NCBI GenBank assembly: GCA_008632985.1
Contig: QPGO01000199.1
Coordinates: forward strand, 62,001-126,000
DNA from: Psammoneis japonica
Taxonomy: Eukaryota
DNA length: 64,000 nucleotides
Direction of reading: 5' to 3'
In this document: positions 1 to 64,000 of the stretch, in pieces
Layout of the letters: every line of letters begins with the position of its first letter
Numbering within the stretch: the first letter of the stretch is position 1
Program-made: the position numbers and the translations under genes
The notes under the pieces: generated by a model
What the model was told of the DNA's origin: nothing
What the model saw: only the letters and a program-made list of their open reading frames with translations
The model's database searches: none

Positions 1-3000
1 CACCTCAAAACTCATGCTTTTCCACCAGGGCTGACAGATGAAAATGCTGACTTTCTGTTTCAGTGGGCCAAGACAACAAAAATCTTGCTGTTGTGTGGGG
101 TGCATGGGTTGAGAAGCTGACAAAGGCATTTGTGCCAGATGGGCCTCATTGGCTGGCATTTTTTGTGGTGTTTTCTGTGTGGCCAGAAGTTTGTGTGTCC
201 ACAGTGTGCAAAGTGCTTGTGGCACTGCCTTTGCAATGAACTCTTCTCATCAGACCACACAGGCCAATGGCTGTTGCAAAGTGGTTGTCTGTCCCCCTTT
301 CACAAAGTCTGTTGAGAAAACAGATGCTTTTGGTGCTCTTCAACTGGGGTGCTCTCATCACTGTTGCATGGATGACATTGGCATTGAATGTGCCCATGTC
401 CACACAAGCCTGTTCACCACCAAAAAACATGTGCTCTGAAAAAACATGTTGTCTCAACTGTGATCAGAATTTCAAACTGCTGACTGTGACAAACCGACAT
501 TGTGCTCTGTGCTCCAATTCAAACTGCTGACTGTGACAAACAGACACAGTGCCAAGCATGACAACAACAAACCACAAACTTTGTTGGCAGTCTTGCAAAC
601 AAACTGCAAGAGTGTGGCTGCATGAGTGGCCATGATTGGGAGGAGCTCAATGTTTCTGAGGGTCTCATGTTGCAAGCTGTGGTTGATGAATGCAAAAATG
701 AGGAGAAATGCTGAAAGAGATGCTGCTGCAGTGCGTGACAGACTGCTGCCATGACACCTTGACAATGGCTTGAAGAGCCAAAATGTGGTGCATTTCACAA
801 AGAAGTCTCTTCCTCTGATGCAGAGAGGAATCTGAGAGAGCAATGATGACAAGTGGTGCTTGTCACAGGACTGGAACCAGAGATGGAGGCAAGAATGCAC
901 ATCTTTGAGCAGCTGAGTTTTGTGCCATGCTGTTGGGCAACATCTGGGTGAGTTGCTCAAGGAACCACATGGCAGCTTGGTGGGTGGCAACCAGATGCCA
1001 GTGGCACAGTCTAATGACAGGGGAGCCACAGAAGTTGAGAGTTGGATGGAGGGAGATGCAAGCACAGCTTGGTGCTCAGCTGCTTGAGGATGATGCTCAG
1101 AGCTCAGGCAGAAAATGGCGGGCCTGGCAGGCAGCATTGGATGAAGCCCTCCAGCTGCAGAAAGGCGCGCCATTTGCTGGGGTCATTGCGAGACACCAGC
1201 ATGTTTTGGGATGGGCAGCCACAGCAGAGGTCAAGTGAAGAAGAGAGAGGGGGAGAGTGTGGTGCAAAAGACAGGGTTGGCATCAAAAACCTCCCTGCAA
1301 ATCTCACAAGAGCACTCATTAAAAACGTTGATGAGGTCAAGGGTGAAAAAGGAGTGTGTTGGAATTTCTTCATCCAAGCAGCAGCAGCAGCCAAGGCAGT
1401 TGAGGCCACCTTTGGTGGCTGCCATCCCTGAGAATTGTCTGTCTCTGGGAGGAGGGAGCAGAGGCAAGGGCAGGAGCCTTGGCAGTCATGGCAAAAGTGC
1501 CTTGACACACTGGGTGGCCATGGGGCGCAACTTGTTGGGGTTTGTTTGGTCTCTGTGTGGCGCCAGCACCAGATGGACAAAGCAGCTGGCTGGCATGAGC
1601 AGGCTGATCTCATCAGGGGGGCCGCCAAGCTGGCTTGAGCCAGGAGAATGAGCTGATTGAGTGTTGCAAAGCAGGGCCTTGTTTTGGATTTGAGGGTGGT
1701 GCAGAGACTTTCAAGAGGGGGCACAGGCCTGGAGTGCATGTCAGCAGCAGAGTCGACGCAACAGTGTGCCTGGCTTGCACACTTGCTGAGAGCTGCCAGG
1801 AGAAGAGCTGCTCATCTGGCATTTGAAGGGTGGGCAATTCGGGGAGGGCACAGGGATTGTGTGATGGGATGCGAACGGGGCATCATGGCATGGCTTGGGG
1901 GCATCGACAAGCAAAGAGCGGACAGACAGGCAGACGTTCACTTCTAAAAAGCGAGGGACGACATGGAAACCGCAAACGCACACACCCAAAAAATTTGGCG
2001 CGCGATGTTCTCGTGTTCCGCTTTGCGTGTTCGTTGCTTCCATGATGCTCCATGCACTGCACACACAAATGAACGAGAGAAAAATCGTGTCACCTTGAAC
2101 TTGATGCCGGATCCATCCTTCACCTCTTTCTCAACAACAACATCCATCTCGTTCGCATCAAGCATTGATGAAATTTTGACAGACATGAAGCACTTCAGTC
2201 TTCTCATTCTTGTTTCGACTCTTGCCAAGTCCATCAATGCTTTTGCGGGGGTGAGCACTCGCCCTTTTGCCGCTCATCATTCCCAGGCACCTCGGCCAAA
2301 ATTGATCCTCATTGGCGGGAGTCCTGGTGCTGGCAAATCAACTTTTGGCATGAGAGCGTGGCACTCGATCAGGGCATGCTGAGGTGCACATCTGCCGATG
2401 CAGTTCAAGCTGTCATGAGATCTTTTGTCAGAGAGGGTGTTAGTCCAGCCCTTCATTGTTCTTCCTGCGAACCATCGGGAGAAGATGACAACCCCGTCAA
2501 GAGCTGGAAAAAGACTTGCACAGTGCTGGAGGCGAGTTTGAGCAGTCTGGCTCTTGACGCCATTGAACGAGGCCAGAGCCTGGTGCTAGAGGGAGTGCAC
2601 ACAATGCCATCGTCCGACTTGATTGAACTGTGGGAAGCAAGCGGTGGAGTTGCGATTGGGTGTCTCTTGACCATCGCTGACGAAGAGGGGCACAAGGGAC
2701 AGCTGCACCGCCGTGGCCCAATGACTGGAAAGGATGCGCCAGAGGAGAAAAAGATCAAGTCCTTTGAGCGGATTCGAGCTGTTCAGGATGAGATGATGGC
2801 TCTCGCTCAAGCTTCCAAGAATTGGGTCCTTGTCGAACAGAATCTTGCGCCCAATCCGCTCGACATCATCCAGTCAAAAATTCTGGATTCCACTCTAGAA
2901 GCAACCAACTCTGGTGTGCCAACCCTCGAAGAATTGTCTCACTTGGAGCAGCATTTGGCACAAGTGGAGGAGGAAATGGATTTGGCGCCAACCGAGGAAG

Positions 3001-3090
3001 CATCGGAGGAAGATGTGCCTGGCGATGGTGTTCATCGCGAAGGAGCTTCATTCTGAGATCATGCTTTGAAAATGTGTGCAGGAATGCATG
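1..3090. other. TpA-depleted (hypermutated) block 1
   Basis: TA dinucleotides are almost absent. CG is also nearly absent in about 1-1000 but present from about 1750 onward. Overlapping Tyr-free, Cys/His-rich ORFs occur in all frames. TA resumes at about 3095 (gctagtctagctacc). Confidence 0.85.
2185..3056 (+). pseudogene. P-loop kinase-like (2-phosphoglycerate-kinase-like) protein with N-terminal signal peptide, TpA-mutated and frameshifted
   Basis: MKHFSLLILVSTLAKSINAF leader, Walker A LILIGGSPGAGKSTFG, frameshift near 2355, then ALDQG..C.S.D.V.AVMRSF...SPALH.SS and SLVLEGVH motifs. The protein contains no Tyr. Confidence 0.7.
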
Positions 3091-4594
3091 GTGCTAGTCT
3101 AGCTACCTTATGTGTAAAAGCGACCCTAACGCTGCCTAAAATCAATGTGTGTCAGCATCAATGCTCCTGCTCCGACAAGTCCCTGCAAAATGCAGCGGGA
3201 GAGAAGAATCATTTGTTCTGTCTCAGAGAGGAGATTTCCTGACCATCTGTCACTGTTGTCATTGCATGCAATGCAAGACACATTTTTTGGAAACATAAAT
3301 GCCATTGCATTCCTTCTCTCTAGTCTACTCTCTAGTCTCTAGAGAGCCTGCCGCAAAAAGGAAACAGGCTCTCGCACGTTTACCAGGACCAGACCGGCGG
3401 AGAGACACAAATCAGTCACGAAACGGTTGACACTCGTGACTGACTTCTCAAAGACCAGCGATAGACAGCAGATTGAAGATGGCAGATGCCATTGCGACCA
3501 ATTGCGACGATGTTGTAGTTGTAAATTGTGTGGCAATTCTCAACAGCGAACGAAACGAAGACTTGTTTTGCAACGGAACGGGCTTTATCAATTACCATGG
3601 CATTGCAAGAATCGTAATGCAATGATAAAGTGAGTTTGCTACTCTACGGGAGAGAGCATGACTGTTGTTGAAGCTCGGCAGGATTGTTCATTGCGTACCG
3701 GTACTCATTTCTCTTTGTGCCTACGTTCGCACTAGATTCCTCTCTCGATAACGAACGCCCCAACGGTTGCGGTGCTTCGACTAAAGACAGAACCAAAGGT
3801 GACGGATTTAGGAATGTGTGCGATTGAATGCAATGGAAAATCAAATGGAAGACAATTGGTGTAACAGTGGCGACGAAATAAATCGGGCCTGACAATCTTA
3901 CAACGCAATTACTTGAATACAAGAACGCGGAAAAGAAAAAAAGTTAGGAACAAAGAGTCGAGTCCGCACAAAGCAAGCGCAAGATGATCGAATGCAGATG
4001 GTTCATTCGCAATCACTGACGTGGGCATTGTACAATTCCTGGTGCCAAAGCTGGTGCAGATCCCACAAGTCGTTCGATGCAGAAACCTAACACTCTCGCA
4101 AATCTCCATACTCTCACAGTCACGACATTATCGCCTATAAAGAGCAAAAGACCCAACAATAACTCTCTTGAAGACTCCTGTTGTGATCGAAACTAAGGGA
4201 AAAATCGCGTTGTCTCCCTAACGAGGGTGCTGACTTGATGAACAAAATAAGAACTCTGGAATTGATAGATTGAAAATAAGCAACAGCGCATCTACAATTG
4301 GCACTTCCACGTCTGCTGGAGAAGCAACAGCGGAAAGTGATGGAAGTGAGACTAGCTAGAACACCGAACAGAACGTTGCAGTCCCAGCATACTGCGACAC
4401 CTCGTGACAAATATGCAGGCTAACGAGAATGTCCACAACAAAAACAGCAGTTACGGGATCGACTCTAGCCTCGAGAGTCACCGAATAAGCTTGACGAAAT
4501 GGCTGGAGAAATCATTATGTATGATCTTTGAGGATACTGATTAAAGCGAGAGTCAGTCCAGGTCGAGTGTGCTGAGAACTCTTCTGGCGACGGC

Positions 4595-8390: not shown

Positions 8391-9650
8391 ATGTATTGGC
8401 GAGTTGCGTGGGTGTCAACGAAGAAAAACCCAATATTCTATGCAGCTGTCAATTCTATTCGTCTCAAAGCCTCTAGTCGACCCTGAGGCGTGCATATCGA
8501 CGCGCTCAACAAGGCCAACTTCGAAGACAAGCTCGAGGATTCTGATTTGGATTGGAGACTTGTTTTGCGGCTGATGCAGGTATTCAATATTATCTAGCCA
8601 GGTGATGGATTCTTCACCTCAGAAAGAGGAAAAACGGAGCTTGGTACATACAGTCGGACAAATAAGCTCATGAATTTAGAATCGTTTGTTTATTTCTGGA
8701 GAGTATTCTAGCTAGCTACTTAATTAAGAATATTGATATTCTTCTGTTGCTCCGCCAGTTTGGCAGAACACGACGAATCTGAATCCATAAAAAACACAAG
8801 GCAATCAGCGCCGAAATAGTCCAGCACATACTGAATATCGTCTTGGAGCGTCCCGTAACGAATACCCCATCGTGGACCCAATCTGAAAAAAGAGAGCGGT
8901 GTGGTACGAAAACAGAAACGACGGCATCAAAGGATGCAACAACATCGCAATAAGCACTACGACCGTCATCGTAGTCCATTGACTTACGTACGGAATAACT
9001 TATGCGCAAATAGAGATTGCTATACTGTACTTTTAGTCTTTCTACTTCTCATTTGTAAAAGTTCAATTGTGTTTCGAATATTTGAAACACGCCAATATCA
9101 AAAGTTGATAGAAATCGGTCGCGTAGGATAACATTGCCTCAAGAGCACCATCAAAAGATGGAGCTCAAGCTTTTTCCTATTTTCGGGGTGGAAAACCATC
9201 CCCAAAAAAAGAAAAAGGGGGGACGTACTACGGAGACAACAAGAGAACTTGCGAATCAACCGCGTGCTAAATCAACACTCCCTACGAGTGAAGACTTACC
9301 GTACCACGTCACTGGTACGACGGAACCCCAAACCCCGCGTTCCGTCAACGGTATGATCTGCTTGGCGAGCTTTTGCTGCTTCGCAGACGAACGCTGCTGT
9401 CTGTTTCAACAGCCGTGACCTGACGGGTCAAGCGAACAGGCAACTTCCTACGGTCAAAGACACAGGAGTAACATGGACTCCAGGCCGGAGACACGCATTC
9501 GATTTGCCCCGACCTCCGGACTTAACTGGCAACACCTACGCCGCCTAGAGACAACACTTCGTGCAAGCAAAACATGTTGTGGAACACCAAACAAGAGAAA
9601 GCAATTAGAACCAGAGGAAGGGCGAGCCATCCTTGGGTATCGCTGCATTC

Positions 9651-9967
9651 TGCCCAATGGCGCCAGGAGATAGTTGATAATGTAGATGTTATACTGTTAG
9701 ATGCTCGAATTGTGAGACGAGATAGAACAGATCTCTCAGAGCTACTCTCTCGGAGATCTCGTGAAATGTGTAGAACGTAGTACTTGAAGCAGTGATCAGA
9801 AACCGAACCCAGACACACACAATAAGTCATTGAAAAGACTTATGGTGTTTAGGATAAGTCATTGAAATGACTTATAGAGAACACGGAGAACATTCTGAAG
9901 AACTCTGATGTATATGGATAAGACACGCACACGATACACTTACGGACAGACACATACACCCACAGCA
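9651..9967 (-). repeat. 3' LTR of gypsy element (largely unmutated)
   Basis: Direct repeat of 14357-14673, preceded on the minus strand by the PPT. Contains 23 TpA. Confidence 0.95.
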
Positions 9968-9980
9968 CTCGCTTCCCCAA
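9968..9980 (-). promoter_or_regulatory. Polypurine tract of gypsy element
   Basis: Minus strand ttggggaagcgag lies immediately before the TG of the 3' LTR. Confidence 0.8.
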
Positions 9981-9989
9981 CTGGACAGT

Positions 9990-12900
9990 TTAGAAGACAG
10001 GGTGAAGACGACGGATATTGATCCGTTCAGTGACGTTGGGAGAGCGCTGGATGGTGACTGTACCGTTGGTATGAATACGTACGATGCGAAAAGGACCCTC
10101 TTTAGGGTTTAACTTGCGTTGGACGTCCTTGGTGGTCACATAAACTTGATCACCGACCTTGTAATCGTAAGGTAAACGGTTGGCATTTTCACGTGCGTTG
10201 TTGCGTAGGACGTTTTGAGCGCGACGTTTATTGATAAATTTCCAATTAGCCAGATATGTCGCAGAAATGACCATGTCACGGCCGAAGACAAACTGAGCAG
10301 GAGTGGACATAAGGGCTGTATGGTAGGTACTGCGTAGAGCCCATGCGACGGATTGAAGTACACCTTCGATTGTTGAATCGTCAAAAGGTCTTGAGCTGAG
10401 ATCCATAGATCGGATGGAATCGCTGATGACTTGGTGGATGCGCTCGACAATCGCGTTTGCTTGTGGATTTTTAACGGTTGTAGGCTTGGGCTTAACTCCG
10501 TAGCTGTCAAGTAAGCCGGTAAATTCAGACGTGAATTCCGGTCCGTTGTCATAAATAACGGACTCGGGTCGCGGATAACGACAGAACCATACCCGATCTA
10601 CGATTAGTGAGATGTTTTCGGAGGTCTTGGAACTGTATGATGATAACTCGGGCCAACGAGTAGCAACGTCGATCATAGAGACGGCTTTGATAGATCGGTC
10701 AATGCCGCTAATATCGGTAAATGTCCAGGGCCCAAAGAGATCGGCTTGCATAACTTGCCACGGTTTGTACACGACATCTGGTGGCGGTAATTCGCCGTAC
10801 TGTTTCACGGTGCGTTTTTGTTTTTGACAAATTTGGCATTCACGAACGAAACGGCGAACCAATCCTTGCATGTTTCGAATGTAGAAGTGGGAAGCAAGAG
10901 TAAGGTAGGTGCGATTAGCTCCAGGATGACAGAGAGAATCGTGATACCAGCGTAACACGGCTGGGAACAAGGTGGATGGAAGGACGATCTTGTCGTTCCG
11001 TAGAATGATACGATGTTTCTGAAACTGATGGCTTGCATAAATGGAAGAGGTTGTCTTGCGAAGCTGAAGAGACTTGTCGGCGGCTTGATGTTCCGCAATA
11101 CGGTCATAGGTTACTGGAAATTCATTTTCAGAGAGTTCCAGAGTCATGGCTTCTTCAAAGTCGTCAGTAGAGACGTCGATGACTGGATGGCGACTCAAAA
11201 AGTCGGCGATGATGTTGTTTTTGCCAGGACAATATTCAAAAGTGTAATCATACTCTTCCAATAAGAGACGCCAACGTTTGACGCGTTCCGACTTAAACCT
11301 GTCAAAGGTTAAGTTTTTGTGGTCGGTCTTGGCATGTACTCGATATCCAAATAGGATGTTACGAAACGCATTCATTGTTTCGACGATGGATGGTAATTCC
11401 TTCTCCATAGTAGTATAATTGCGTTGAGCTCTGGATAGTTTGCGACTGTAGAATGCAATGGGCCACTCGCCGTCTTCAAATATCTGAGTTATGACGGCGC
11501 CGAGTTGATAATCGCTCGCGTCGGTATAGACATGGAAGTCGCGACCGAAATCAGGGAAGCGTAATAGAACTTGGCGAGCAATGCTTTTTTTCATAGCTTG
11601 AAAAGCTTGTTCTTCGACATCGGTCCACTTGAACTTGATTTTAGGAGAAACCATAGCCGATAGAGGTGCCATGGTGTGGCTCTTGCGGTGCCATAATTTC
11701 TTATAAAAATTGACGAACCCATTAAACGATCTGAGCTGACTTTTGTTCTTGGGAGAAGCAAAACGAAGGATGGGAATGATCTTTTCCTTCTGAGGTGTGA
11801 TGCCCTTTCTCGTGATATGATATCCTAAGAAGTCAACCTCAGGAGCAGCAAGAAAAGTGCCTTCAATGTGTGCTCGAAGGTTGCTCTCATCGAGTCGACG
11901 AAGCACGAGCTCGATTCGTTGGAGGTGCTGAGCGAAAGTTGATTTTGTAAACAAAAGAATGTTATCGAAGAAAGCACACATGTCTTCCATATCGCCAAAG
12001 TGTCGATTGACAAAGGCTTGGAAGATATCACTCGAAGGCATGGCTCCTTGAGGGAGTCGAAGGTAGCAATATTTGCCCCACGGCAAGATGATAGCACAGA
12101 GTTTGCTCGACTCTCGGTCGAGTACGAAATGACAGTAACCACGGTTGAGATCGAAACAAGTGGCATGCGTAAATCCGTTGATTTTCCAAATCATATCATC
12201 AGGATTTGGTATTGGATGAGGATGGCGAATGAGACATGAGTTGAGGTACCGTAAGTCGGTCAAGAAACGGACTCCGCCGTTTTTCTTTGGTCGGAATAAA
12301 CATGGCGCGCCCCACTCGGAAGTAACATCACGAGTAATAACGCCAATGTTTTCAAGTTCATCGACTTCTTTTCTCGCGATAGGATAAAGGGGTTGAGGTA
12401 TGGTATAAGCCCTAGCACAATAAGGCTTAGAGCCAGGCTTGACTCGGAGTTTGATCGGAGGACCAGGAACTGCACCGAGGGTTCCATCAAATAAATTGGG
12501 ATAGCGACCGAATAATTCCAATAGGTCGTCTTTTTGACTTTCAGTCAAATGGTTGCATCCCGACACCATCTTCTGATAGTTATGCTTGTCATACTCGTTG
12601 CTAGAAATAGCACGGGTCTGACGTTGAATAGCAGCTAGCATAAAATCAGGCAAAGCTGCATCGGCAGGATCGATATTTATAATTTCGTCTCGATCCATTG
12701 ATCCTTCTGGACGCATGGGAATAGCAACATCGTCCCATATAACACTCTTAGTCTTGAAATTGAAGATAAGACCAAGGCTTTGACATGTTCGGCGGCCAAT
12801 AACGATGTCATGGCGCCCGATTGCCTTCTCTTCGATATAAGCATCATTAGATACTTTTTTTGCACTCGTAAATTCTGGGAGTTTGATTTCAATAGTGGCA

Positions 12901-14261
12901 AGCTGTGAAGACTTGACTGCTTTATATCTTCCGTTGACTTTCGTATCCACAGTCTTGATAGAATGAGGAATAGACTTGAGCGCGTCACGCTTGACGAAAT
13001 TACCACGCGCTCCAGTGTCGAGTAGGCCAAGATAGTATTTATGTTGGCCTGTCTCGCGATTAAGAAACTGAATCGTCGCTTCCGTAGTCAATACAGGGTC
13101 CGGTACTTTCAATTGGGACTCCCGAATGGCATTCATCTCTTCAAACATATCGGAGATTTCGTTGATGTCTTGTGACGATACGCTATCAGCGTCGTTCGGA
13201 TTCGAGCGGAATTGAACCTGAGTCGAACGAGTAGGTTGATTCTGAACTTGATTGTTCTCTTCTGGAAGACGAGAACGGCTCCTTGTATTATACTGATGAC
13301 TTGGCTGAGTCCTCTGACTGTTCTGATTACGGTTGGAGCCTTGCTGTTGTTGACCGCGGTTAGTGCGGTTTTGTTGATACTGTTCGCGTTCTCGGCGAAT
13401 AATGTTACACTCCCTCCCACCGGGATGTACAACACCATGTATGGGACATGTGTTATTTGACTGTTGATTTCTTCTGTTGGAATTGGCACCTTGATTCCTG
13501 TAGTTACGATTCGTCTGGTTTCCACCACGACGATTGGGTGAATTATTTCGATTGTTCCGGCGATTCCCGCCAGAATTGTCTCGAGGATTGTTTGGCTCGA
13601 TACGTCGCAAGCCTTCATAGTACTGGACCTGTTGGTTGAGGCCCAATCCTCGAATATTGGCCTTGGTTTGGTCATGAATCCATGATTTGGGACCGGATTT
13701 TCTAATAACAACGACGAGTTCCGCTTCCGTGAACTTCGGAATTGGATCAACGTCATCTTCGTCCGTTGGTAAGGGTATAAATGGGATGAGATCGTTGATC
13801 TGGCGGACACGTTGAAGAAATGACTGTACGGTGTCATTACGTGGTTTCTTGAGGGACTGTAACCAATCCTTGGTGTCTACCGCAATGTCACGGGTCATCT
13901 TGGTTAAGATGTAATCTTCGCGTGCCGCAAGAAAAGTGTCTTGATCTCGATCTTCGTACTGATCGACAACAGTGTTCCAGTCATCCATCGGCTGGCCTGT
14001 CAAAAGGCGGTCGATTAGACGGAAACGTGGAATTCCCTCTGCAACGTTGAGGATAGCAGAGATTTCTTCATAACGCTTGAAGAAAGCGAGAGTGTCTTCA
14101 GGGTCATCACTGTCCAACACACGTGCTTCTATGGTGGACTTGAGTCCATCAGGATCATTTGGGTCGACTGGAGACTCGAAAGACACAAAACGATCTTTAC
14201 GACGTTCTTCGCTTGTTCGTTCCGGGCGAACAAGACGGAAAGGACAGTTTTCGGCTGACAT
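9990..14261 (-). CDS. Gypsy gag-pol polyprotein (gag, aspartic protease, RT, RNase H, integrase), 1423 aa
   Basis: Protease LLDTGA; RT RFLTDLRYLN and LPWGKYCYLRLPQG; RNase H VYTDASDYQLG and TDHKNL; integrase HDSLCHPG..CQIC, DNGPEF, NPQANAIVER. Domain order PR-RT-RH-IN. Confidence 0.95.
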   Translation of the reverse strand: MSAENCPFRLVRPERTSEERRKDRFVSFESPVDPNDPDGLKSTIEARVLDSDDPEDTLAFFKRYEEISAILNVAEGIPRFRLIDRLLTGQPMDDWNTVVDQYEDRDQDTFLAAREDYILTKMTRDIAVDTKDWLQSLKKPRNDTVQSFLQRVRQINDLIPFIPLPTDEDDVDPIPKFTEAELVVVIRKSGPKSWIHDQTKANIRGLGLNQQVQYYEGLRRIEPNNPRDNSGGNRRNNRNNSPNRRGGNQTNRNYRNQGANSNRRNQQSNNTCPIHGVVHPGGRECNIIRREREQYQQNRTNRGQQQQGSNRNQNSQRTQPSHQYNTRSRSRLPEENNQVQNQPTRSTQVQFRSNPNDADSVSSQDINEISDMFEEMNAIRESQLKVPDPVLTTEATIQFLNRETGQHKYYLGLLDTGARGNFVKRDALKSIPHSIKTVDTKVNGRYKAVKSSQLATIEIKLPEFTSAKKVSNDAYIEEKAIGRHDIVIGRRTCQSLGLIFNFKTKSVIWDDVAIPMRPEGSMDRDEIINIDPADAALPDFMLAAIQRQTRAISSNEYDKHNYQKMVSGCNHLTESQKDDLLELFGRYPNLFDGTLGAVPGPPIKLRVKPGSKPYCARAYTIPQPLYPIARKEVDELENIGVITRDVTSEWGAPCLFRPKKNGGVRFLTDLRYLNSCLIRHPHPIPNPDDMIWKINGFTHATCFDLNRGYCHFVLDRESSKLCAIILPWGKYCYLRLPQGAMPSSDIFQAFVNRHFGDMEDMCAFFDNILLFTKSTFAQHLQRIELVLRRLDESNLRAHIEGTFLAAPEVDFLGYHITRKGITPQKEKIIPILRFASPKNKSQLRSFNGFVNFYKKLWHRKSHTMAPLSAMVSPKIKFKWTDVEEQAFQAMKKSIARQVLLRFPDFGRDFHVYTDASDYQLGAVITQIFEDGEWPIAFYSRKLSRAQRNYTTMEKELPSIVETMNAFRNILFGYRVHAKTDHKNLTFDRFKSERVKRWRLLLEEYDYTFEYCPGKNNIIADFLSRHPVIDVSTDDFEEAMTLELSENEFPVTYDRIAEHQAADKSLQLRKTTSSIYASHQFQKHRIILRNDKIVLPSTLFPAVLRWYHDSLCHPGANRTYLTLASHFYIRNMQGLVRRFVRECQICQKQKRTVKQYGELPPPDVVYKPWQVMQADLFGPWTFTDISGIDRSIKAVSMIDVATRWPELSSYSSKTSENISLIVDRVWFCRYPRPESVIYDNGPEFTSEFTGLLDSYGVKPKPTTVKNPQANAIVERIHQVISDSIRSMDLSSRPFDDSTIEGVLQSVAWALRSTYHTALMSTPAQFVFGRDMVISATYLANWKFINKRRAQNVLRNNARENANRLPYDYKVGDQVYVTTKDVQRKLNPKEGPFRIVRIHTNGTVTIQRSPNVTERINIRRLHPVF

Positions 14262-14356
14262 GTTAGGTCAGGGCAATTCGCTAGACTTGCTGTCGACAAT
14301 GAGGGCTTCGCAGAAGCAAAGAACAAGTTGGATTTAGATGGGGAGTAAATTTGCTG

Positions 14357-14673
14357 TGCCCAATGGCGCCAGGAGACAGTTGACAATGTAGATGTTGTGC
14401 TGTTGGATGCTCGAATTGTGAGACGAGATGGAACAGATCTCTCAGAGCTGCTCTCTCGGAGATCTCGTAAAATGTGCAGAATGCAGCACTTGAAGCAGCG
14501 ATCAGAAACTGAACCCAGACACACACAATGAGTCATTGAAAAGACTCACGGTGTTTGGGATGAGTCATTGAAATGACTCACAGAGAACACGGAGAACATT
14601 CTGAAGAACTCTGATGCACATGGATGAGATGCGCGCACGATGCACTTGCGGACAGACACACACACCCACAGCA
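14357..14673 (-). repeat. 5' LTR of gypsy element (TpA-hypermutated)
   Basis: Aligns without gaps to 9651-9967 with 30 transitions. Only 2 TpA remain. Confidence 0.95.
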
Positions 14674-15480
14674 CATTCCGGCTTGGCGAACAACAAACAC
14701 ATCGTGCCGCAAACAACGAGTCGAAAAAGAGAGACAACACACCATCAAGCAAAATGAGTTGTGGAATGCCAAACAAATGCAAGGTCTCAATCCAGAGGAA
14801 GGGCGAGCCATCCTTGGCGACAACGGCACTCAGGCTTGGCAAACAACAAGCACATGGTGCGAGACGACGAGTTGTGAGCGAAAAACGAGCGCGGATTCTC
14901 AGAGATTTTGAGTCATGACCGTTGCTAAATTTCTCAATCACTGTCACTTTTGTGCATCCTCGCAGAGTTGTCACAGTGATTTCGCATGCACCGGAGGCAT
15001 GTGAACAGCAGCGAGCTTTTTTTCAGGATCGCCTCACAGACCCCAAGACCCATGTGTCGGTGGAAAGCTCTCGATGAGCTGAACAAGGTCAAATGCATGT
15101 TGCATTGGTCGGAGTGAGCAGAAAGCGAGCGTTTGTCGCTGAAAATTTGGCACTTGTTTGAAGAAAAACAACGGTCACATTCGCCTTTTTCCAATTGATT
15201 TTTGTGTTCACACACAAACATCAATCGCATCATAAATTTGACATTTAATCCGGAGTTCCAAAATCTCATCCAGGATTGCATGCTGTGCAAATTGCTTGTG
15301 GGACACCTTGTTTCTGTGCTTTGCTCTTGCTCTGCAGCTCTTGCAACTGAAGATGTCGAAAAAAGGCTTTGGTCAGTCGCTGCAACTGGGTGTGTTTTAG
15401 TGACTGACGAAAGCCGATTTTCGATGAGCATTTTTGGTGTCGAGATTTTTCAACAGCAAAAATAACTTCGCTGCTGTTTA
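14370..15480. other. TpA-depleted block 2
   Basis: Covers the gypsy 5' LTR, the flanking DNA and a MITE. TA is very rare while CG is largely retained. Confidence 0.85.
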
Positions 15481-22332: not shown

Positions 22333-24419
22333 ATTGGGTCGAATGACGGGCCCGTAGACTAGCAGGAGATGCCGATTCAATGACGAAAAAATGTTGCTAC
22401 ACAACCGTAAGTTCCATTGCTATGTACGTTAGTGATAAATCTGTTTGTGATGTGCTATCTAGTTCGAATCGTTGTCATCACTGTCGTTGCCTTCGTCTTC
22501 CTCAAGATCAAACAGATCCACAGTGCCTTTCTTTTGTTGTAAACACACCTCCAATCCGACGTGAGTCACTCATCTTCGTTCTTCCTGTTTTCGACGACGA
22601 ATGACTATCGGTAGCTGCGATTCCAAATCGACTGTTTGCAGATGTCGCGCTGTGTATGTGTACATGTATAAAACGAGAGCAACAAGGTGTGAGGATTTGC
22701 TGCACGCTGGTAGAAGTTACAATACATACCATAGGTTGAACTTACTCGTGGCAAACACCGTCCATCATCGACTGTGGAGTCGTCACCTTTTTCTTGTATG
22801 GGCATGGGCTGAACGTTGACCACGCCGTGTGCATCCGACCAGTCGGACACCAATGTACCGCCCAAGATTTCTTTCTGCTATGATGGACTGGGAGCACTTG
22901 GAACACAGACACAACCGCAACTCCGTGGATACTGTTTCGTCAATGTTGCGGTGCACCAAAAGGGTCCTCTTTACCAGAACCACTATCCGAACCTGACGAC
23001 AGAGAGCTCTTGACGTCATCCCCACAATTACAGATTTCCTAGACGTGGCAGTTTAGATAGAGGTAGGCCGAAGCGACTCTTAAGGTAGTAGTCCATGGTA
23101 GCTTCTTCGATACATGCTCTCCGCTGGCACTGTCTAACTAAGCGGAGTACAAACAAGTCGGATAGAATCGCTTTGTCCCAAAGACTTGTGACACCGATTG
23201 CAATAATAGCAGCCCAATGACGGCTTAGCGAAAGAGCCTTGTCGGTACTATTATTGAGAAGGTGTGGAAAGAAGAATCCAGTCTATCGTCCGTTTGAGCG
23301 GCCACGTCGTTTTCGATTCCGATTCTTGTGGGGATCACAACAGCGCCACTTGCCGATGGCAAATTGAAACAAATTCATGTCACAGACTCTGTAACCACAA
23401 ACTCTGTAAGAGAACGCCTGGGCTGTTCAAGGACTTCATCGGCAAGGCGATGTACACTGCTAGCCGCGTTAACGATTGTGGGCGTTTCAATCTGAGATTT
23501 CTCTTGGCCTCCTGTGACTAAAACAAATGAGATCAGTAAAGCTCGTGTGAGCTACAACCAAGCTTAACAGCAACCACTCTTACAAACGACAGACCCGCAA
23601 CACAAGCTCACAGTTCAAAAATCTTCCTCGGCTGAATTTGGAGAACGGGGACGCAGTGCATGAGAACAGTCGCCAAGCTTCTAGAAAAAGTGCTCCTAAT
23701 TTTGGAGCCGCACCACAAACGCAAAAAAGTGTTGTTAGACACATTGTTGCATTGATGGCTTGGTTCGCTCACCAACAGTGGCAATCCCAACAAAGATTCA
23801 GTGATGCTTGCGCTGGTGCTTTCTTCCCCAAAGCACTCTGCGCTTGTTGAAAATGGTCAGCGGCACATGCCTTTTTTTGGAGTTTCCTCACAAGGCCAAG
23901 TCCTTCAATGCACCCTTGGCCTTGAAATATGACGCAACTGGCCTCAGCAATGTCATCAAATCTCTCAAACCGAAGTGGAAATCTGCCAGGAGGGCAATCC
24001 AAAATTGAGTCGTCACCAAGAGTGCATCACTGGTGCATGCCAACTCCTCAACAGCCTTGGGTTTCTTCATGTCAGTGGCCAGAGCCTTGCTGCATGTGTC
24101 TCCAACACGGCAAACAAAAAAAAAAGCTTGGGATTCTGCTTCAGCAACCACACTGCAGAGTGAGTGCTCCAATTGCCACACCAGCCAATCATTCACTTGA
24201 ACAATCCCCCAGAGAATTGATTCATGGCAGCAGATGATGCAGGCACATCATTGACACTCTGACCAGTGTGAGCTGAAACAAAACCTGGTGCACATGATCT
24301 TGTTTCACTGTGCACCTTTCAAGCACCAGTGGCTGAATGAGGCTCAGCAATTGTGCATCATCAAGTGGATGAAACACTGCCCACAGGGATGCCATGCAAT
24401 CTTGTCTGATCATTTTTGA

Positions 24420-25230
24420 GTGGCTTGCACATGCTTTGCAATTTTGCAATGTGGACAATTTGACAGTGATGTCAGTGGGCACAAAGCACAGGCATGTGCA
24501 TGGACATCCTGCTTGTCATCACAAAAGGCACGTTGGATGACCACATCAAGAAGGTGGGCGCCATGCTTCCTTGAGAAGCTTGAAGACACTGGACTTCAGG
24601 TCAGCACCTCAACATTGCTGTTCTGTGGAGTGGGCTTGTTCTTTGACTCTCAAGAAAAAAGGTTGAGAAATGTTGCCAGGCCAAAAAACAAGAAAGAACT
24701 TTGGTCATTCAGTGGCACAGTGAGCTCCTGCTGAGATGCATGGTTGCGCAGATTGAACATTTTGGCACCCCTTGCAAGATTTGCAGGCTGGGCCATGAAA
24801 TGGGAGGTGACTTCAGGCCATTGAAAGAGAAGTGCTTCTAAACTGTCAAGTGAGCAAAACATCAGAAGAGACACTTCTTGCATCTGGGTTTTGACAAACT
24901 GTTTGAAATCTTTGCCATTGGCTGCATTCAAACACACAACCCACAGCAGCAACATCTCAAAACAAAAACCTGTTACACTTTGCAGCAACAGACAGCTGAG
25001 CAGTGCTCAGCTGACTTGTGCAACAGCAGAGCAAGAATCATTTGCAATTTTGACACTCTGAAAAGTTCAGATCCACTTTCTGCAGCTGTGGTTGTTGCAC
25101 CATTGTGCACACAGATCACAAAAACTTCATGTGCAGAGCACTCAAAGCTTGGCATGAAAAGAATGCAGGCCTGAGCTGAGATGTGTAATTCCATCCCAAT
25201 TTAATTGCAGGCTGCTGTCTCAGCCATCTC
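24420..25230 (+). mobile_element. Heavily decayed gypsy pol relic (RT/RNase H/integrase remnants)
   Basis: ILLVITKGTLDDHIKKVGAML, PKNKKELWSFSGTVSSC*DAW.RR..ILAPL and HLGFDKLFEIF match the typical gypsy motifs YxDDLLxITKGT..DHL, P..K.ELRSFLG.VNYY and YPDF..PFEI. Confidence 0.65.
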
Positions 25231-25609
25231 AACCCAAGCCAGGCCAATTTTTGACTCTAAAAAATGTTGTCCAACAGTTGCAAAAACACACCTGAAGTGC
25301 ATGATCTTAACAAGGCCTTTGCAAATGAAGCAAGGGAGATTGCAATGACTCCCACCAGGTTCAACAAAAGCCAACTCAAACAGCCAAAAAATGGTCACCT
25401 GTTGCAAGACAGTTGCATTTTGCATGACTGTTCTGCACAGAAATTCTGTGAAGGAGAAATGAGAAAATGTCCAACAGACAGCTGGTTTGTTGATGAAACA
25501 AAATTTGAGTCACAAAATCAATCTCCTGTGTGAGAAGCTTCTGGTGAAAAAATGTGGCAGAGATTGTCCCTTTGAAAGCCTTTTGCATTTTTCAGAGATG
25601 TCATTGTCA

Positions 25610-27000
25610 GAAAAACCTCTGGTGGAAAAGTGTGAGTCAACAGAAAAAGTCACTTTTGCCAATGTTTTTGCACTTGCAACTTGAGCACATTCTTCCTTCA
25701 TGTCCCAAAAAATGACCTCAAAGGGGCAAGCACAGTTTGGGTGGCTTGCTTGACTGCAGTTGTGGCGGAAAAGCTGAGTTGGGGCAGGAGGCCAAGAAAC
25801 CTGGTGGCAAAGTGTCAGCCAGGAGAAACAAAGTCACTTCCACCACACATTGTCTGCACTCTCAGCATCTGAGTGCACTCTCCATGTCCCAAGAAACAAG
25901 CTCAAAGGGTTGATCATAGACTGGGTGGTTTGTTTGGCTGTGCTGCAGCTGTGGCGGCAGAGCAGCCTCTGGTGGGTGGGCAGATGTGCAGCTGGAGGCA
26001 AAGTGTCAAACCACAGAAAAAGTCACTTCTGCAAACATGTTTGCAGTTTTGGCTTCTGAGCACACTCCTTGTGTCCCAAGAAACATGCACAGAGGGTTGG
26101 GCACAGCTTGGGTGGCTTGCTCAGCTGCAACTGTGGTGGCAGTGTGAAATCTGGGCAGCAGGCAGAAAAGCAGTGTGTGGTGGGAAAGTGCCAGTTGGCA
26201 GAAAAAGTCACTTCTGCCACATTGTTTGCATTTTCATCTTTTGAGCACACTTTTCCTGTCCAGAAGCATCTTGTCAAACAGTTGAGCACAGTTTGGGTGG
26301 CTTTGGTTGGCTGCAGTTGTGGTGGCAGAGCAGCCTCTGGGTGGGCAGAAACTGCTTGAGGGCAAGTGTCAAACCACAGAAAAGTCACTTGTGCCAATGC
26401 ATTTGCAGCCAAGGATTCTGAGCACACTCTTCATTTCCCAAGAAACAACTGCAAAGAATTCAGCACAGTTTGTGGGGCTTGCCTGACTGCAGCCATGGCA
26501 ACAAAGCAAAGTTTCAGCAGCAGGCAGAGAAGTCTGGTGTGTTGAACCTCAAAGGGTCAAGCAAAGATTGCGTGGCCTTGTTTGACTCCAATGGTGGCAG
26601 CACAGCAAAATCTGGGCAGCAGACAAAGACAAAGAAGGGTGGCAGCAAAATGTCAGTTGGCAGAAAACATCACTTCTCCCAAATTGTTTTCACTTCCAGC
26701 ATCTGAGCACACTCTTCATGTCCAAAGGCATCTTCTGAAATGGTTGAGCACCATTTGGGTGGCTTGCTTGATTGCAGCTGTGATGGCAGAGCAGCCTCTG
26801 GGTGGGCAGAAACCCTTGCAGGCAAAGTGTCAAACCTCAGGAAAAGTCACAACTGCCAATGAATTTGCAGTCTTGGCTTCTGAGCACTCTTCCAAAAAAT
26901 TGCTTTTGCCAAACTTTCTGCACTCTCAGCCACTGCTGAGCACACTCTTCATGTGCCAAGAAACATCATAAAATGGTTGAGCACAGCTTTGGTGGCTTGC
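25610..27000. repeat. Degenerate tandem repeat, unit about 185 bp, about 7 copies
   Basis: Recurrent ggcaaagtgtca..cagaaaa(a)gtcactt..ctgagcacactct..tgtcccaagaaac..gcacagtttgggtggcttg near 25620, 25805, 25995, 26180, 26360, 26645 and 26820. Confidence 0.8.
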
Positions 27001-28978
27001 TTGATGAACACGCCAAGGCTTGCTGCTGTGCATTGCAGCTTCATTCTTGGACTGGGGTGCACTGGGCACTGGAGTGTTGGCATTCTTTCCTCAGGTTTTC
27101 CTGCTTTTGAATTCATCATCTTGAACAAAGGCTCGGGCGAATCGAGTGAGACATGGCAAAAGATGTGTTGCATGTCATTTTTTGCATGATGTGGAGTGGG
27201 CGACAAATCAAGATCGTCGCAGCGATGTGGCAGAATGTTTTGGAAAGTCCACCAAAATGAGCTGTGACAAGTGTTGTCACACAATTGGATTGTCAGACAT
27301 GAGCACTTCCCAGTTTGTTTTGTGAGCACAACAGCTCTTGCTCCTGCAACCTCTGTCGGTTTCATGATTTGATTTCACAGGTTCTTGAATGCACTGAAAA
27401 AGCTTCAGGCCCACAGACCAACCACCATTTGTGTGCATCAAACATTGCCAAACATGAACATTTAATCCTGCTTGCTTGACACAGAATGTCATCTCAAGAC
27501 ACTGCTGTTGATGAACTCAAAAGGCTTTCATTGACATTCTCAAGGGCTTTCTCCACAGGGGCTCTGTTCTGCCAACTCCAAAAGGGCAGAGAAGACCAGC
27601 CACCACCTGCCATTCCAAGAGGAAATCCCATGGCTTTGGCAGCTGCAGAAAGCAGGCCACCAAAGTTGTTTGTTCTGGGGCTGGCTGCAATGACTGCAGT
27701 CAACACAAGAGTGATGTCAATTTTTTCTTCTGCCACTTTGAGACTCTTTGATTCATCATCTGCATTTCTGTGAGACAGAAGTTCACCACAGCATCTGCCT
27801 TTGTTGGGCACCAACTTTCTCTTTGTGCTGTGTTCATGACTCTCCACTGATGCTGTCACAAAAATGTGCACACAAAGGACCTTCAACTGGAGCACCAAGC
27901 ACCTGCAATTTGTGCTGCAGTGCAACAAATCAATTCCTTGGCAATTCACATGGCAACCAAGAACTCATCCCCCCCAAAAGCAGCTGATGGCTGCTTCCCT
28001 CTCTGCAAATTTTGCTGCCACATTGGCTGAGAGCCAAAAATGACAGGAGAGCACTCTGCACAAAAGCCAACATGGCTTCAGAAGCTTTTTTGTGTTGAAA
28101 CAGTGGCTGCAAGCTCTGGTGGCTGTTGCAACAAATCTCAGGGCTAAAATGCACATGGGGACACTTGCAAATGTTGAAAGCCCGGCTCTGCACCTGCTGG
28201 GGTTGGAGCAGGCCAGTTGGTGCTCCGAGCTGATGGCTGCTGGCTGGCCCACTTCTCTGGTGGTGGCTGGCTGGCCAGCAGTGTGCAGCCCTCACTTGGG
28301 GGTGTCAAGCTGAGTGCAACAAAGAGCTTGCTTAAGGCATTGGCATGTCATGGTGGAATGCACCCAGCTCTGCAACATTTTGTCTTGCCTTGCTGCTGAC
28401 AGAGGCAACAGTGATCACCAGAAAGAGGAGCACGGGCAGCTCGGACAAAAGAAGCAGCAAGGAAGCCAGCGGTGGTTTGTTGCCAGCACAGGCAACAATG
28501 AATTGAGAGGCATCAATTTTTCAGCACCTTTGGACAGGAGCAACAGATGTGTTTGACTGCAGATGCTTTGGAAGAAACAACAAGAGGCAGAGTTGTTGCC
28601 AGTGCGCGGAGCCTCGACGGGGACGATGGGGCGGTTCGTTCGGCACTGTAGCACGAATCGCGTGCGACGTTCCCTGTGCACTTTTTACGTACGAGAGAAT
28701 CAACGTGTTGTGTTTGTGCAGTGCGAAAAGCGTGGACGTGCAAAAAACTGCGCTCCATCTGTCACTTGCTTGTTGCTGCTTGTCTCTGCTTCAGCGGCTT
28801 CGGGTGCCTGGCTCTAGGAGCAGTGTTGTGTGTTGTTGCTGTCTGCTGTTGCTGCTGCTGTTGCTGAAACCAACCCATCATCATCGAAACAAACCAAGCC
28901 ACGTCTTCTAAAGATCGAAACTTTCAAAAGCAAGCCTTGTTGCAAAAAAAAAAAGCCGTTTGAGCAGTTTGATTGAAT

Positions 28979-29232
28979 TGTGACTATTGACGTCTATTTA
29001 TGCCTCGCGACATCTACGACATTCGATTATCAATATTCGATTTCTATGGCCCCAAATTGTTTACACGTACGGCCCCCAAATTGTTGAAGACATCTCAAAC
29101 ACTTATTGGAAAACACTTATTGAGACGTTCGTCTTCTCACCTTTTCAAAATTCAAAGTAATCACAATTAGTTTATCTGTGTTCATCACAAGGCTAGTTGT
29201 CGACTTAGTTCTAATTAAACTATTAGCTCACA
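28979..29232 (+). repeat. 5' LTR of copia element
   Basis: No differences from 34896-35149 found by eye. Confidence 0.95.
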
Positions 29233-29350
29233 CGCTTCCTCTGCGATAAAGTGTTCTTAATCGAACCAGCAACGTTCTCTCCGAACCAACAAGATACGCC
29301 GTTTAACAAGAGGAGCACAAAGACGTGCTCAGGAACTTCAAGACCTCATT

Positions 29351-30692
29351 ATGGCGGACGCTGACGCGCTCGCTAACGCCATCGCACAAGCTGTCCAGGC
29401 GGCTGTCCAGCCGATTGTGAACAACATGCCTGCACCACCAGCAGCAGCTGCTCCAGGACCTTTCGCCAAGTCACCAGCGCTGGCCCGTGCAGACGTTTTG
29501 GACTACACCAAGAAAGGTGACGCGCTCGTTTTCGCAGACGCGACCAAGCCGTTGGACACCCAGTTCAGTCTTGAATCGCCCAACATCCCAGTCTTCCTAG
29601 AAGAACTCGCGGTCCGTTCTAAACCAATGGTTGGAACGACATTCTCACGATCAACATCAACCATGGCGCAGTTCCTGCTTTGCCAGCCGAGAACAAGGAC
29701 ATGCTCACCGAGTATGGACAAATCTCAGCTGAGCAGATTCGCACGGTATCCGCTACATACCTCAATCTGGCGCAACGCAACGCGCAGAATAACTACCAAC
29801 TCCTCGTATGTCTCCAGAGCACCCTAGACGAGCCCTCCAAGACCATCATGGCAACGGAAGAAAAGGCTGAGTACACTGTTGGAGACGAAGAATGCGGTGT
29901 AGCCTACCTCAAGGCACTTCTATCAAAGGCTCAAGTCGACACAAGGGCTACTGTCTCGGTAATCCGTGACCAAATGGGCAATCTAGACGCTTACATGGCT
30001 ACAATTGACGGTCAAAACATCAAGACTTTCAACAACCACGTCAAATCTTTGGAAAAGAAACTTGCTGCTCGCGGCCACACTAGTTCCGATCTGCTGAACA
30101 ACGTGTTCAAGGCTTACCTCACGTGCACCGACTCAGAATTCATCGAGTCCATCAAGAAGTACAAGAGCGACTATGAAGATGGATCAGATCTCGATGTACA
30201 TGCTCTCATGCTCAAGGCTGAAAACAAGTACAAGATCCTTATCGAATCTGAAAGTGGATGGCACCAACCAAAGAGCAAGAGACCATCGTAGCGCTACAAG
30301 CCGAAGTCAAGACCCTTCGTGACACCAAAGCTCGCAACGCTCCACGCTCTACTGGCAACAGCAACAAAACCACTCAGAGCTCCACCAAGGGCAACAAAAC
30401 GAAAGAATCGGGTTCCAACAATAACAACAGGCGCCAGAGGTTCAAGATCCTATCCAACGGATGCAAGAAATGCCTCTTCTACGGAAAACATGCCTGGCGC
30501 AACGCAGCTCCTAAAGACGGACAACCGCACACCAAGACGGTTGAGGGTAAAACATTCAAATGGTGCAAGAACCACGAGTATTGGTCCGCTCACCTTACCA
30601 AGGACTGCTCCACCGTCAAGGACAAGGCCGAATCAGACCTAACTGCCTCCATGGCAAATGTTGGCGTACAAGACGTATCAGAACAAGAATGA
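29351..30692 (+). CDS. Copia gag (two frameshifts, near 29625 and 30255)
   Basis: ORF pieces 29351-29827, 29680-30291 and 30258-30692. C-terminal WCKNH..W..H....C knuckle-like motif. Confidence 0.8.
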
Positions 30693-34873: not shown

Positions 34874-34895
34874 CCCATCTCATCGAATGAGGGAG

Positions 34896-35149
34896 TGTGA
34901 CTATTGACGTCTATTTATGCCTCGCGACATCTACGACATTCGATTATCAATATTCGATTTCTATGGCCCCAAATTGTTTACACGTACGGCCCCCAAATTG
35001 TTGAAGACATCTCAAACACTTATTGGAAAACACTTATTGAGACGTTCGTCTTCTCACCTTTTCAAAATTCAAAGTAATCACAATTAGTTTATCTGTGTTC
35101 ATCACAAGGCTAGTTGTCGACTTAGTTCTAATTAAACTATTAGCTCACA
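34896..35149 (+). repeat. 3' LTR of copia element
   Basis: Direct repeat of 28979-29232. Confidence 0.95.
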
Positions 35150-58400: not shown

Positions 58401-58889
58401 GGCAGCAGGACAGTCACAATGACCAAACAAATGTTTGCAAGACACAAGATGCATCATGCACCAGGGTTTCATGAATTTTTGTCAACTGCTTCTTTCTTTT
58501 GGCTGGACTTGGACGGGTGTGGCACGTTGCCACTTTGTGATGATGGTTTGCACTGCTTTGATCCACTTGATTTGGATGAGACAGAAGAAGCCCAACTTTT
58601 GCAACCTCCGTGCATTCAGGAAACCAATGCCGCCCCCCATGAAGCTTCATTCCATCAAGAATGAGTTGGCTGTGATGACAAAGATGTCTCTCCCACCAGC
58701 TGCACAAGTCTTTTTTTCTGTCTTGGGCCAAGCATGCCAAGGAGAGTGATTGCAAGTGCAAGTCTTTGTCCTGCTCTGCCACTTTGCATTGCCATCAACA
58801 AAACAGCTGGCTGCTCTTCTCCGCTCAACAAGCAAATGACAGAAGCCATGAAATCCAACAAATGAAGTCAAACCAATGAGCATGGTCAG

Positions 58890-63900: not shown

Positions 63901-64000
63901 TCTTCCCGGATTCCGTGACAATCCAATGGCACATGTCTGATGCAACACACAGCTGCTGATAAGAGTCAATGTATCACGGCGACGTGTTGCAGCATTTAAA
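60970..64000 (-). mobile_element. Second Ty1/copia element (3' half, runs off the window), TpA-hypermutated
   Basis: RT DLENACLNAP, ALHGLKSSG, LVCVDDIL; RNase H FVDADHAG, QNTVESAMFG, NLADLFTK; PPT gagagga near 61226-61232; candidate 3' LTR about 60970-61225. Confidence 0.88.

Follow-up and report, generated by a model that had tools for sequence, protein, structure and literature searches.

How can the two long terminal repeats (LTRs) of a single retrotransposon insertion come to differ at 30 positions, when every difference is a transition and all of them fall on only two dinucleotides? The question is raised by an intact Ty3/gypsy element at positions 9646 to 14678 of the stretch analysed here, a window of 64,000 nucleotides from contig QPGO01000199.1 (positions 62,001 to 126,000, forward strand; all coordinates below are those of the window). 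In one LTR of this element, nearly every 5'-TA-3' step (TpA) of its twin is replaced by TpG or CpA. The changes are specific to TpA, symmetric between the strands, bounded in sharp-edged domains, and placed on transposons and repeats. They are very probably the result of a process that acts on DNA after integration and converts TpA to TpG or CpA; it would have struck a 1.1-kb domain consisting of the 5' LTR and its flank, spared the rest of the element, and gone to saturation in other transposon-derived blocks of the window.

A Ty3/gypsy element with unequal LTRs

The element is assigned to Ty3/gypsy by its direct LTRs, which begin with TG and end with CA, its short target-site duplication (TSD), and its order of reverse transcriptase (RT), RNase H and integrase domains (RVT_1 at residues 660–818, RNase H at 881–1006, and integrase at 1097–1268). 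Its parts are as follows, with TpA given as counts and as observed-to-expected ratios (o/e).

9646..9650, left copy of the TSD, CATTC (letters beside the LTR pair; empty-site joint)
9651..9967, minus strand, 3' LTR, 317 bp, unedited, 23 TpA, o/e 0.89 (alignment, composition)
9968..9981, minus strand, polypurine-tract candidate, purine-rich on the minus strand and abutting the 3' LTR (judged by eye)
9990..14267, minus strand, Ty3/gypsy gag-pol, stop-free, 1425 aa, with RT, RNase H and integrase (open reading frame and domain search)
14357..14673, minus strand, 5' (promoter) LTR, 317 bp, edited, 2 TpA, o/e 0.10 (alignment, composition)
14674..14678, right copy of the TSD, CATTC (letters beside the LTR pair; empty-site joint)

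The frame at 9990–14267 is the sole long stop-free frame of the element and, because it runs on the minus strand, the TpA-poor LTR on the right is the 5' or promoter LTR, as the initial annotation had stated. Contigs from public runs (four from run X1 and one from run X2) connect 9645 directly to 14674, with 5 letters shared. The joint is an empty site, from copies of the surroundings that lack the element, and it confirms both the TSD and the boundaries of the insertion. The surroundings are themselves a high-copy repeat (8801–9650 and 14674–16800), with a word depth of 2,600–4,900 compared to approximately 100–170 in single-copy sequence. No second copy of either the gypsy element or the flanking repeat is present within the window, and run X2 scarcely covers the interior of the element or 24142–28800. 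Additionally, the insertion is bracketed by a direct repeat of 90 bp (9547–9636 and 14730–14817, 80% identical).

The internal part of the element has a TpA o/e of 0.65. As a control, its frame was given the same test of conserved tyrosine columns that is described below for an edited copia element, and 16 of the 22 columns are kept. Therefore, the inside of the element is unedited.

Differences between the two LTRs

The two LTRs align without gaps over their 317 bp and differ at 30 positions, all of them transitions. Of the 23 TpA in the 3' LTR, 11 read TG and 11 read CA in the 5' LTR, and one is kept. One site shows the opposite arrangement (TG in the 3' LTR, TA in the 5' LTR), and the remaining sites are five in which CG stands against TG or CA and one in which CA stands against TG. 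Apart from the split into 11 TG and 11 CA, these counts, together with the shared CATTC, had been given in the initial annotation, and every one was reproduced.

The initial annotation had also reported no changed adenine in AA, AT or AC. When scored by the 5' neighbour, A>G changes affect 0 of 24 adenines after A, 0 of 39 after G, 2 of 26 after C (both CpG-linked), and 11 of 23 after T. When scored by the 3' neighbour, T>C changes affect 0 of 13 thymines before T, 0 of 14 before C, 2 of 23 before G, and 11 of 23 before A. In our reading of the site table, 23 of the 30 differences are TpA changes, of which 22 fell in the 5' LTR and one in the 3' LTR, and the other seven are CpG changes, split about evenly. 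No difference lies outside these two contexts, and background substitution since insertion is therefore negligible. Since just two hypermutable dinucleotides account for the 30 differences, the LTR divergence of 9.5% is uninformative on the age of the insertion and unusable as a clock. Along the LTR, the edits ordered by strand form 9 runs where 12 ± 2.3 are expected, which is not a significant clustering. The flanking bases were also tried as a predictor of whether a site became TG or CA, and were rejected (8 sites fit and 6 do not, by hand count).

TpA-free blocks across the window

The 5' LTR is one of several places in the window where TpA is nearly absent. Four blocks were delimited by composition and are given here with two Ty1/copia sequences that bear on them.

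1..3100, TpA-free block that runs past the window start, TpA o/e 0.04, CpG o/e 0.36
14357..15450, TpA-poor domain of approximately 1.1 kb, comprising the 5' LTR and approximately 780 bp of flanking high-copy repeat
23700..28800, TpA- and CpG-free block, TpA o/e 0.05, CpG o/e 0.17
56500..64000, TpA-free block that runs past the window end, TpA o/e 0.05, CpG o/e 0.46
28979..35149, plus strand, young Ty1/copia element with LTRs of 254 bp (28979–29232 and 34896–35149) that are 100% identical, unedited, TpA o/e 0.58–0.84
61344..63946, minus strand, hypermutated Ty1/copia pol, aligned to residues 552–1423 of homologue P0122

Together, the four blocks (1.1–7.5 kb) amount to 16,796 bp, or 26% of the window. 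Their TpA o/e is 0.05 compared to 0.60 in the rest of the window, and their CpG o/e is 0.38 compared to 1.03; CpA (1.71 compared to 1.14) and TpG (1.69 compared to 1.18) are raised. In counts, with the rest as reference, 587 TA and 677 CG are missing from the blocks, and 599 CA and 544 TG are in excess, such that the gain in CA and TG covers approximately 90% of the loss in TA and CG. Block totals are symmetric between the strands (1796 CA and 1780 TG), and in full 500-bp windows the asymmetry between CA and TG does not exceed about ±0.2. The longest run without a single TpA measures 2783 bp (58106–60889).

The distribution of TpA o/e over 500-bp windows (n = 255) is bimodal: 61 windows lie below 0.15, only 8 lie at 0.15–0.30 (mostly at edges), and the rest are centred on 0.4–0.8. 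Therefore, editing is domain-wise and near all-or-none, with edges that are sharp to tens of bases. For instance, the left edge of the 5' LTR domain falls between the TpA at 14346 and the first edited site at 14377, and its right edge falls between 15398 and 15463, from where TpA is dense again. Six TpA remain inside this domain (o/e 0.08), and its CpG o/e is still 0.83. Similarly, in the block at 23700–28800, TpA is sparse as far as the left LTR of the young copia element at 28979. In the high-copy repeat around the gypsy element, scarcity of TpA is limited to the 780 bp on the right, and 15463–15900 is very TpA-rich.

The targets identified in the blocks are one copia pol and one LTR with its flank. 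Targeting cannot be put down to sequence identity alone or to copy number alone, given that editing is absent from the twin LTR and from the left-hand portion of the high-copy repeat around the gypsy element. The open reading frames (ORFs) of the blocks match no Pfam family at E ≤ 0.01 except for a weak IN_DBD_C, and at E ≤ 1 a marginal Zeta_toxin P-loop appears at 1948–2379. The frames at 1948–3053 (plus strand), in the first block, are Tyr-free P-loop frames with marginal Zeta_toxin/AAA matches (E 9e-5 at best), and may represent a kinase-like gene, either of the host or carried as transposon cargo, that was caught in the edited block. The young copia element, with open gag/pol frames at 30693–32009 and 31934–34873, is inserted exactly at the end of the TpA- and CpG-free block and looks very young.

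Degenerate tandem arrays are present in two of the large blocks, with a unit of approximately 185 bp at 25619–27003 and of approximately 192 bp at 59135–60490. When the units are compared, CA in one stands against TG in another at the same site 38 times, compared to 6–16 times for other double-transition pairs; this count is given little weight, since the families overlap and CA and TG are common in the blocks.

Direction of the change

If TpA was lost from the 5' LTR, then that LTR should look abnormal; if TpA was gained by the 3' LTR, the 5' LTR should resemble ordinary sequence. The 5' LTR has 2 TpA where 19.9 are expected from its base composition. Among ordinary 317-bp windows (n = 926), none has 2 TpA or fewer, and 45 have 23 or more. 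Additionally, the depletion does not stop at the end of the LTR, and runs on into 780 bp of flank.

A further line of evidence comes from the proteins. Tyrosine codons are TAY, cysteine codons TGY and histidine codons CAY, and the fate of conserved tyrosines thus records the direction in which TpA has changed. The hypermutated copia pol was therefore compared with 58 long relatives, taking as conserved those columns with at least 70% agreement among at least 20 of them. None of the 22 conserved Tyr columns is kept; 11 read Cys, 10 His and one Phe. Other residues are kept in 62–100% of their conserved columns (for instance, K in 26/26, G in 42/44 and W in 13/14), and Arg has become Cys, His or Trp in 6 of 29. 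The pol sequence has many full-length relatives at approximately 60% identity, and the named ones are from a diatom. In its RT part (61929–62756, minus strand), Pfam gives no RVT_2 match at E ≤ 0.01, and 944 relatives are found with HMMER at E ≤ 1e-10. When the edited copia ORFs were compared by BLASTP with the intact copia element of the window, no significant match was obtained; the two belong to different families.

Because the 5' LTR is abnormal in composition, its flank is depleted as well, further TpA-free blocks exist, and the copia pol has gone from Tyr to Cys and His, the direction is one of TpA loss. TpA was lost in the 5' LTR, and the change is thus not repeat-induced point mutation (RIP). 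The initial annotation had argued both points from the LTR pair, and had proposed a near-saturating, strand-symmetric A>G (T>C) process confined to 5'-TA-3' on transposon DNA. That proposal holds now that the direction has been tested, with the copia pol adding Cys or His at 21 of its 22 Tyr columns.

CpG loss and the context of surviving TpA

The blocks lose CpG as well as TpA, and the two losses are nested. In the copia part, TpA o/e is 0.03–0.12 and CpG o/e 0.67–0.79; in the oldest-looking parts both are near zero, and in 1–1000 CpG is almost gone. No 1-kb window combines low CpG with normal TpA. CpG loss trails TpA loss and is slower. It is most simply explained as deamination of 5-methylcytosine (5mC) in methylated, silenced transposons.

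The few TpA that survive in the blocks are not a random sample. YTAR (Y, pyrimidine; R, purine) accounts for 31 of the 51 survivors compared to 310 of 1970 TpA elsewhere (odds ratio 8.3, p = 1e-12), and RTAY for only 4 of 51 compared to 630 of 1970. RTAY is thus erased most completely, and YTAR survives best. Given this bias and a choice between TG and CA that is independent of the flanks, the process looks like one with a preference for a duplex tetranucleotide, in which the strand is chosen at random.

The signature outside the window and the identity of the host

Among the best 150 representatives of the relatives of the edited RT, nine are nearly Tyr-free, with Cys or His at the conserved Tyr columns; this is no unbiased rate, because a Tyr-free query favours such relatives. 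The nine come from three sources (Logan, ENA and JGI/IMG records). One copia fragment from a metagenome (locus L007, 176–841) has a TpA o/e of 0.14, a CpG o/e of 0.91, and 222 aa that include no Tyr. Its residues at ten conserved Tyr columns are 5 His and 5 Cys, whereas the related loci L001–L006 are normal and unedited. Compared to the majority of these six, A after T has changed to G in 7 of 13 cases and T before A to C in 5 of 11, and the changes elsewhere amount to 6–23%; this spectrum agrees with TpA erasure, although it is noisy at a divergence of approximately 25%. As far as its sequence can tell, the signature of TpA erasure is present in another host.

The host of the window itself was approached through a WLM-domain ORF. 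Its named relatives, among the best 120, are all diatoms (Seminavis, Fragilaria, Mayamaea and Ditylum) at 55–61% identity, and no relative above 64% identity was found in the protein collection. The named relatives of the edited copia pol are likewise from a diatom, and a low-scoring Atlas lead for a BTB ORF agrees. The host is thus most likely a diatom and not Bigelowiella natans, which would make it a second lineage for TpA hypermutation.

Comparison with known systems

Bigelowiella natans enters here because the initial annotation, which knew of no description of such a system, has been overtaken: a 2026 preprint describes one in that species (Mettrop et al., 10.64898/2026.01.13.699255). 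According to the available part of its text, 231 of 302 new single-nucleotide mutations in mutation-accumulation lines fell in two integrated viral regions; with few exceptions those in the viral regions were A>G or T>C, and every one of them lay on TpA, at a rate approximately 1000-fold above background. The same text reports an enrichment of reverse transcriptase and transposase domains among coding sequences poor in TpA, and names as a candidate an ADAT2-like DNA adenine deaminase, chosen by likeness in sequence and predicted structure only (10.64898/2026.01.13.699255). No other description of TpA hypermutation was found in the literature, and none for diatoms; the available part of a paper on diatom transposons (PMC2806351) contains nothing relevant to such hypermutation, and the passages of PMC9258296 that were consulted do not bear on it either.

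As far as the preprint's available text goes, the two processes are alike in that A>G and T>C occur only at TpA, giving TpG or CpA depending on the strand, and in that foreign or mobile DNA is affected locally, in domains, with clusters depleted in TpA and enriched in CpA and TpG. They differ in the host, which in B. natans is a chlorarachniophyte (rhizarian) and here most likely a diatom (stramenopile), and in extent, since erasure is near-complete here (TpA o/e 0.05) compared to the Rho of 0.45 given there for a nucleocytoplasmic large DNA virus region. Here the process is seen on LTR retrotransposons and repeats, and in B. natans it is described on giant-virus and virophage inserts. The type of evidence also differs, being de novo mutation in the part of the preprint available and comparative here. 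New in the present case are the nested CpG loss, the twin-LTR clock, the edges sharp to 30 bp or less, and the preference for RTAY over YTAR; the preprint's available text makes no mention of CpG, LTR, trinucleotide or context.

Similar to RIP in Neurospora and other fungi, the process disables integrated transposon copies through dense transitions with a dinucleotide bias. In contrast to RIP, which changes C to T at CpA and thereby makes TpA, it destroys TpA and makes CA and TG. RIP strikes both duplicates, whereas here there are 22 TpA changes in the 5' LTR and at most one in the 3' LTR. RIP makes stop codons, and the TpA process cannot make any. Therefore, the description as reverse-RIP-like in the initial annotation is apt for the reversed direction and fails for the trigger, because a twin LTR of the same sequence was left untouched and sequence homology alone is thus no trigger.

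Decay of 5mC accounts for 7 of the 30 LTR differences, for the CpG o/e of 0.17–0.46 in the older blocks, and for the copia changes from Arg to Cys, His or Trp; it cannot remove TpA. Editing before integration by ADAR or APOBEC enzymes has one sign and is copied into both LTRs, and APOBEC changes C to T. The present case resembles these in being a hypermutation of retroelements that is fixed in the genome. RNA editing by ADAR or ADAT enzymes, fixed via reverse transcription, was considered and rejected, because both signs are equally frequent, the LTRs differ, and flank that does not belong to the element is edited.

The natural substrates of TadA and ADAT2-ADAT3 are tRNA anticodon loops, and engineered adenine base editors derive from TadA. 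By analogy, an enzyme of this type would produce the observed change, since it converts adenine to inosine (read as G) at an adenine after U or T. In contrast to such loop substrates, the tetranucleotide pattern described above suggests a duplex site. To our knowledge, activity of TadA/ADAT2-type enzymes on DNA at such a scale is not established in a wild organism.

The proposed process and its alternatives

After integration of the gypsy element, nearly each 5'-TA-3' in the 1.1-kb domain would have been converted to TG or CA, the equal frequency of the two reflecting A>G on either strand. In the other transposon-derived blocks the same process would have run to saturation, followed by a slower decay of CpG to TpG and CpA. 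Chemically, adenine may be deaminated to hypoxanthine in DNA by a TadA/ADAT2-type or other deaminase, and read as G at replication. The enzyme may be led to silenced or foreign chromatin, and the role may be genome defence, in which promoters and proteins are spoiled without the making of stop codons. The damage would include promoter words in the 5' LTR, all Tyr codons, many Ile, Val and Leu codons, and TA at codon boundaries.

Several points weigh against this account. The polarity of the LTR pair is read from composition and context, and not from a third copy of the LTR. Given strand symmetry, the primary lesion could be either A>G or T>C. There is no support for a simple 'TAY' preference on one strand, because the choice between TG and CA ignores the flanks (8 sites against 6), and the bias towards Tyr-free relatives noted above counts here too. 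The edge of the 5' LTR domain lies within 30 bp of the inner LTR edge; this could be a chromatin boundary, and the assembly could also have switched between haplotypes or copies in the repeat. Run contigs depart from the window by 1–2% in single-copy sequence. Lastly, the library type of runs X1–X3 is unrecorded, and their read chemistry and independence from the assembly are uncertain.

The first alternative concerns the chemistry and is unlikely, though the best placed of the four. It holds that the primary lesion is on thymine at TpA (oxidation of the TET/JBP type to 5-hydroxymethyluracil or 5-formyluracil, followed by mispairing with G or faulty repair), or that a methylated adenine is involved. 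The strand symmetry, 11 TG to 11 CA in the LTR and 11 Cys to 10 His in the copia pol, suits either base of the palindromic step. Survival of TpA is set by the double-strand tetranucleotide, with RTAY lost and YTAR kept, and a choice of TG or CA that is blind to the flanks fits a site recognised in the duplex better than one recognised on a single strand. The same blocks also lose CpG, the other palindromic step that is modified. The duplex context thus slightly favours some duplex-reading enzyme. Against this alternative, the only paper on the process, in the part available, prefers adenine deamination, likewise as a proposal (10.64898/2026.01.13.699255).

A second alternative, and quite an unlikely one, is that an unedited copy of the element was joined to an edited allele or paralogue inside the LTR repeat, either as a chimera of haplotypes or copies or through gene conversion. 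The process that erases TpA would then still be real, and the join alone would have made it look as if a single LTR had been hit. The left edge of the edited domain (14346–14377) does fall at the inner LTR edge (14356/14357), but the other three blocks are equally sharp-edged where no LTR is present. The run contigs differ from the window in its single-copy parts by 14–37 letters per kb, which points to a second haplotype or strain. Inside the gypsy element, at least 13 differences from run contigs are found among the matches listed, and these include four in which the window has TA against CA or TG, three pairs of TG against CA, and one CA against TA. As these differences are mostly TA against CA/TG or TG against CA, another copy with TpA edits of its own probably exists, although only differences among those matches are counted. 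However, CATTC on both sides together with the empty-site joint indicates a single insertion event.

It is very improbable that the pattern is an artefact of sequencing or base-calling, in which a modified base at TpA in silent chromatin was misread as G or C. The platform of the assembly and of runs X1–X3 is not on record, and the effect is domain-wise, as expected of a chromatin mark. However, over 1337 bases of a TpA-free stretch, k-mer contigs from X1 (word depth approximately 70) depart from the window only once, and Tyr-free copia copies occur in records from three independent sources and in one metagenome contig. CpG is lost from these blocks in the manner of genuine decay, conserved Arg being changed as described in 6 of 29 columns. 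Additionally, according to the available text of the preprint, the changes in B. natans are new mutations in Illumina data of mutation-accumulation lines (10.64898/2026.01.13.699255).

Hardly credible, finally, is RIP-type or other cytosine deamination with the polarity reversed, in which CpA and TpG of the 3' LTR became TpA and the 5' LTR is ancestral: two copies alone give no direction, each of the 30 differences is formally expressible as C>T or G>A, and the 22 of 69 CA/TG sites struck would be a RIP-like fraction, but the ancestor would need to have had 1–2 TpA in 317 bp (0 of 926 ordinary windows are so low), the flank beside the 5' LTR is likewise TpA-poor, the window shows no RIP index anywhere (the highest TpA/ApT per 1 kb is 1.07), the Tyr to Cys/His changes of the copia block run opposite to RIP, and the host looks like a diatom and not a fungus.

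Post-integration erasure of TpA could also be part of something larger, although this extension is doubtful. Erasure of TpA and of CpG might be two arms of one chromatin-directed system that turns both palindromic pyrimidine-purine steps, TA and CG, into TG or CA, with RTAY-preferring duplex recognition and domains whose edges are sharp to a few tens of bases, consisting of a dual A/C DNA deaminase complex or of paired base-modifying enzymes. Such a system would be widespread in marine algae of the stramenopile, alveolate and rhizarian (SAR) group, among them diatoms, chlorarachniophytes and the hosts of the Tyr-free copia copies in public metagenomes, and would be an old eukaryotic defence comparable to RIP.

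Implications

Near-saturated TpA erasure in a probable diatom, and its presence in environmental copia elements, suggests that the process is widely spread in marine algae. Some diatom species are genetically tractable, and the enzyme could be found there. If it is a natural TA-directed DNA adenine editor, it would be of interest to base editing. The twin LTRs serve as an internal control for the process. Because no stop codon is created and TAA and TAG are removed, edited transposons keep long open frames; these can escape Pfam and therefore be annotated as orphan genes.

Other features of the window

Outside the four blocks, a frame of 1557 aa without stops (46541–51214, minus strand) carries a TNP-like RNase H N-terminal domain (PF21787, E 1.3e-7) and is probably the transposase of a large DNA transposon. 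Its TpA o/e of 0.38–0.51 is somewhat low, but TpA is not erased. Close to it, a tandem repeat of 147 bp (45516–46013, 3.4 copies, 98% matches) lies in DNA of normal composition.

An intron-less frame of 498 aa at 18790–20286 (plus strand) encodes DUF5010 with a CBM35/CBM6 module (glycan-acting), and its relatives are mostly bacterial. A paralogue of it at approximately 82% identity is found in the run contigs. Lastly, a contig of run X2 skips 96 bases at 21473–21568 (joint 21472>21569), and the skipped segment has GT..AG ends. The segment is probably an intron spliced out of a host transcript, and X2 may therefore contain RNA.

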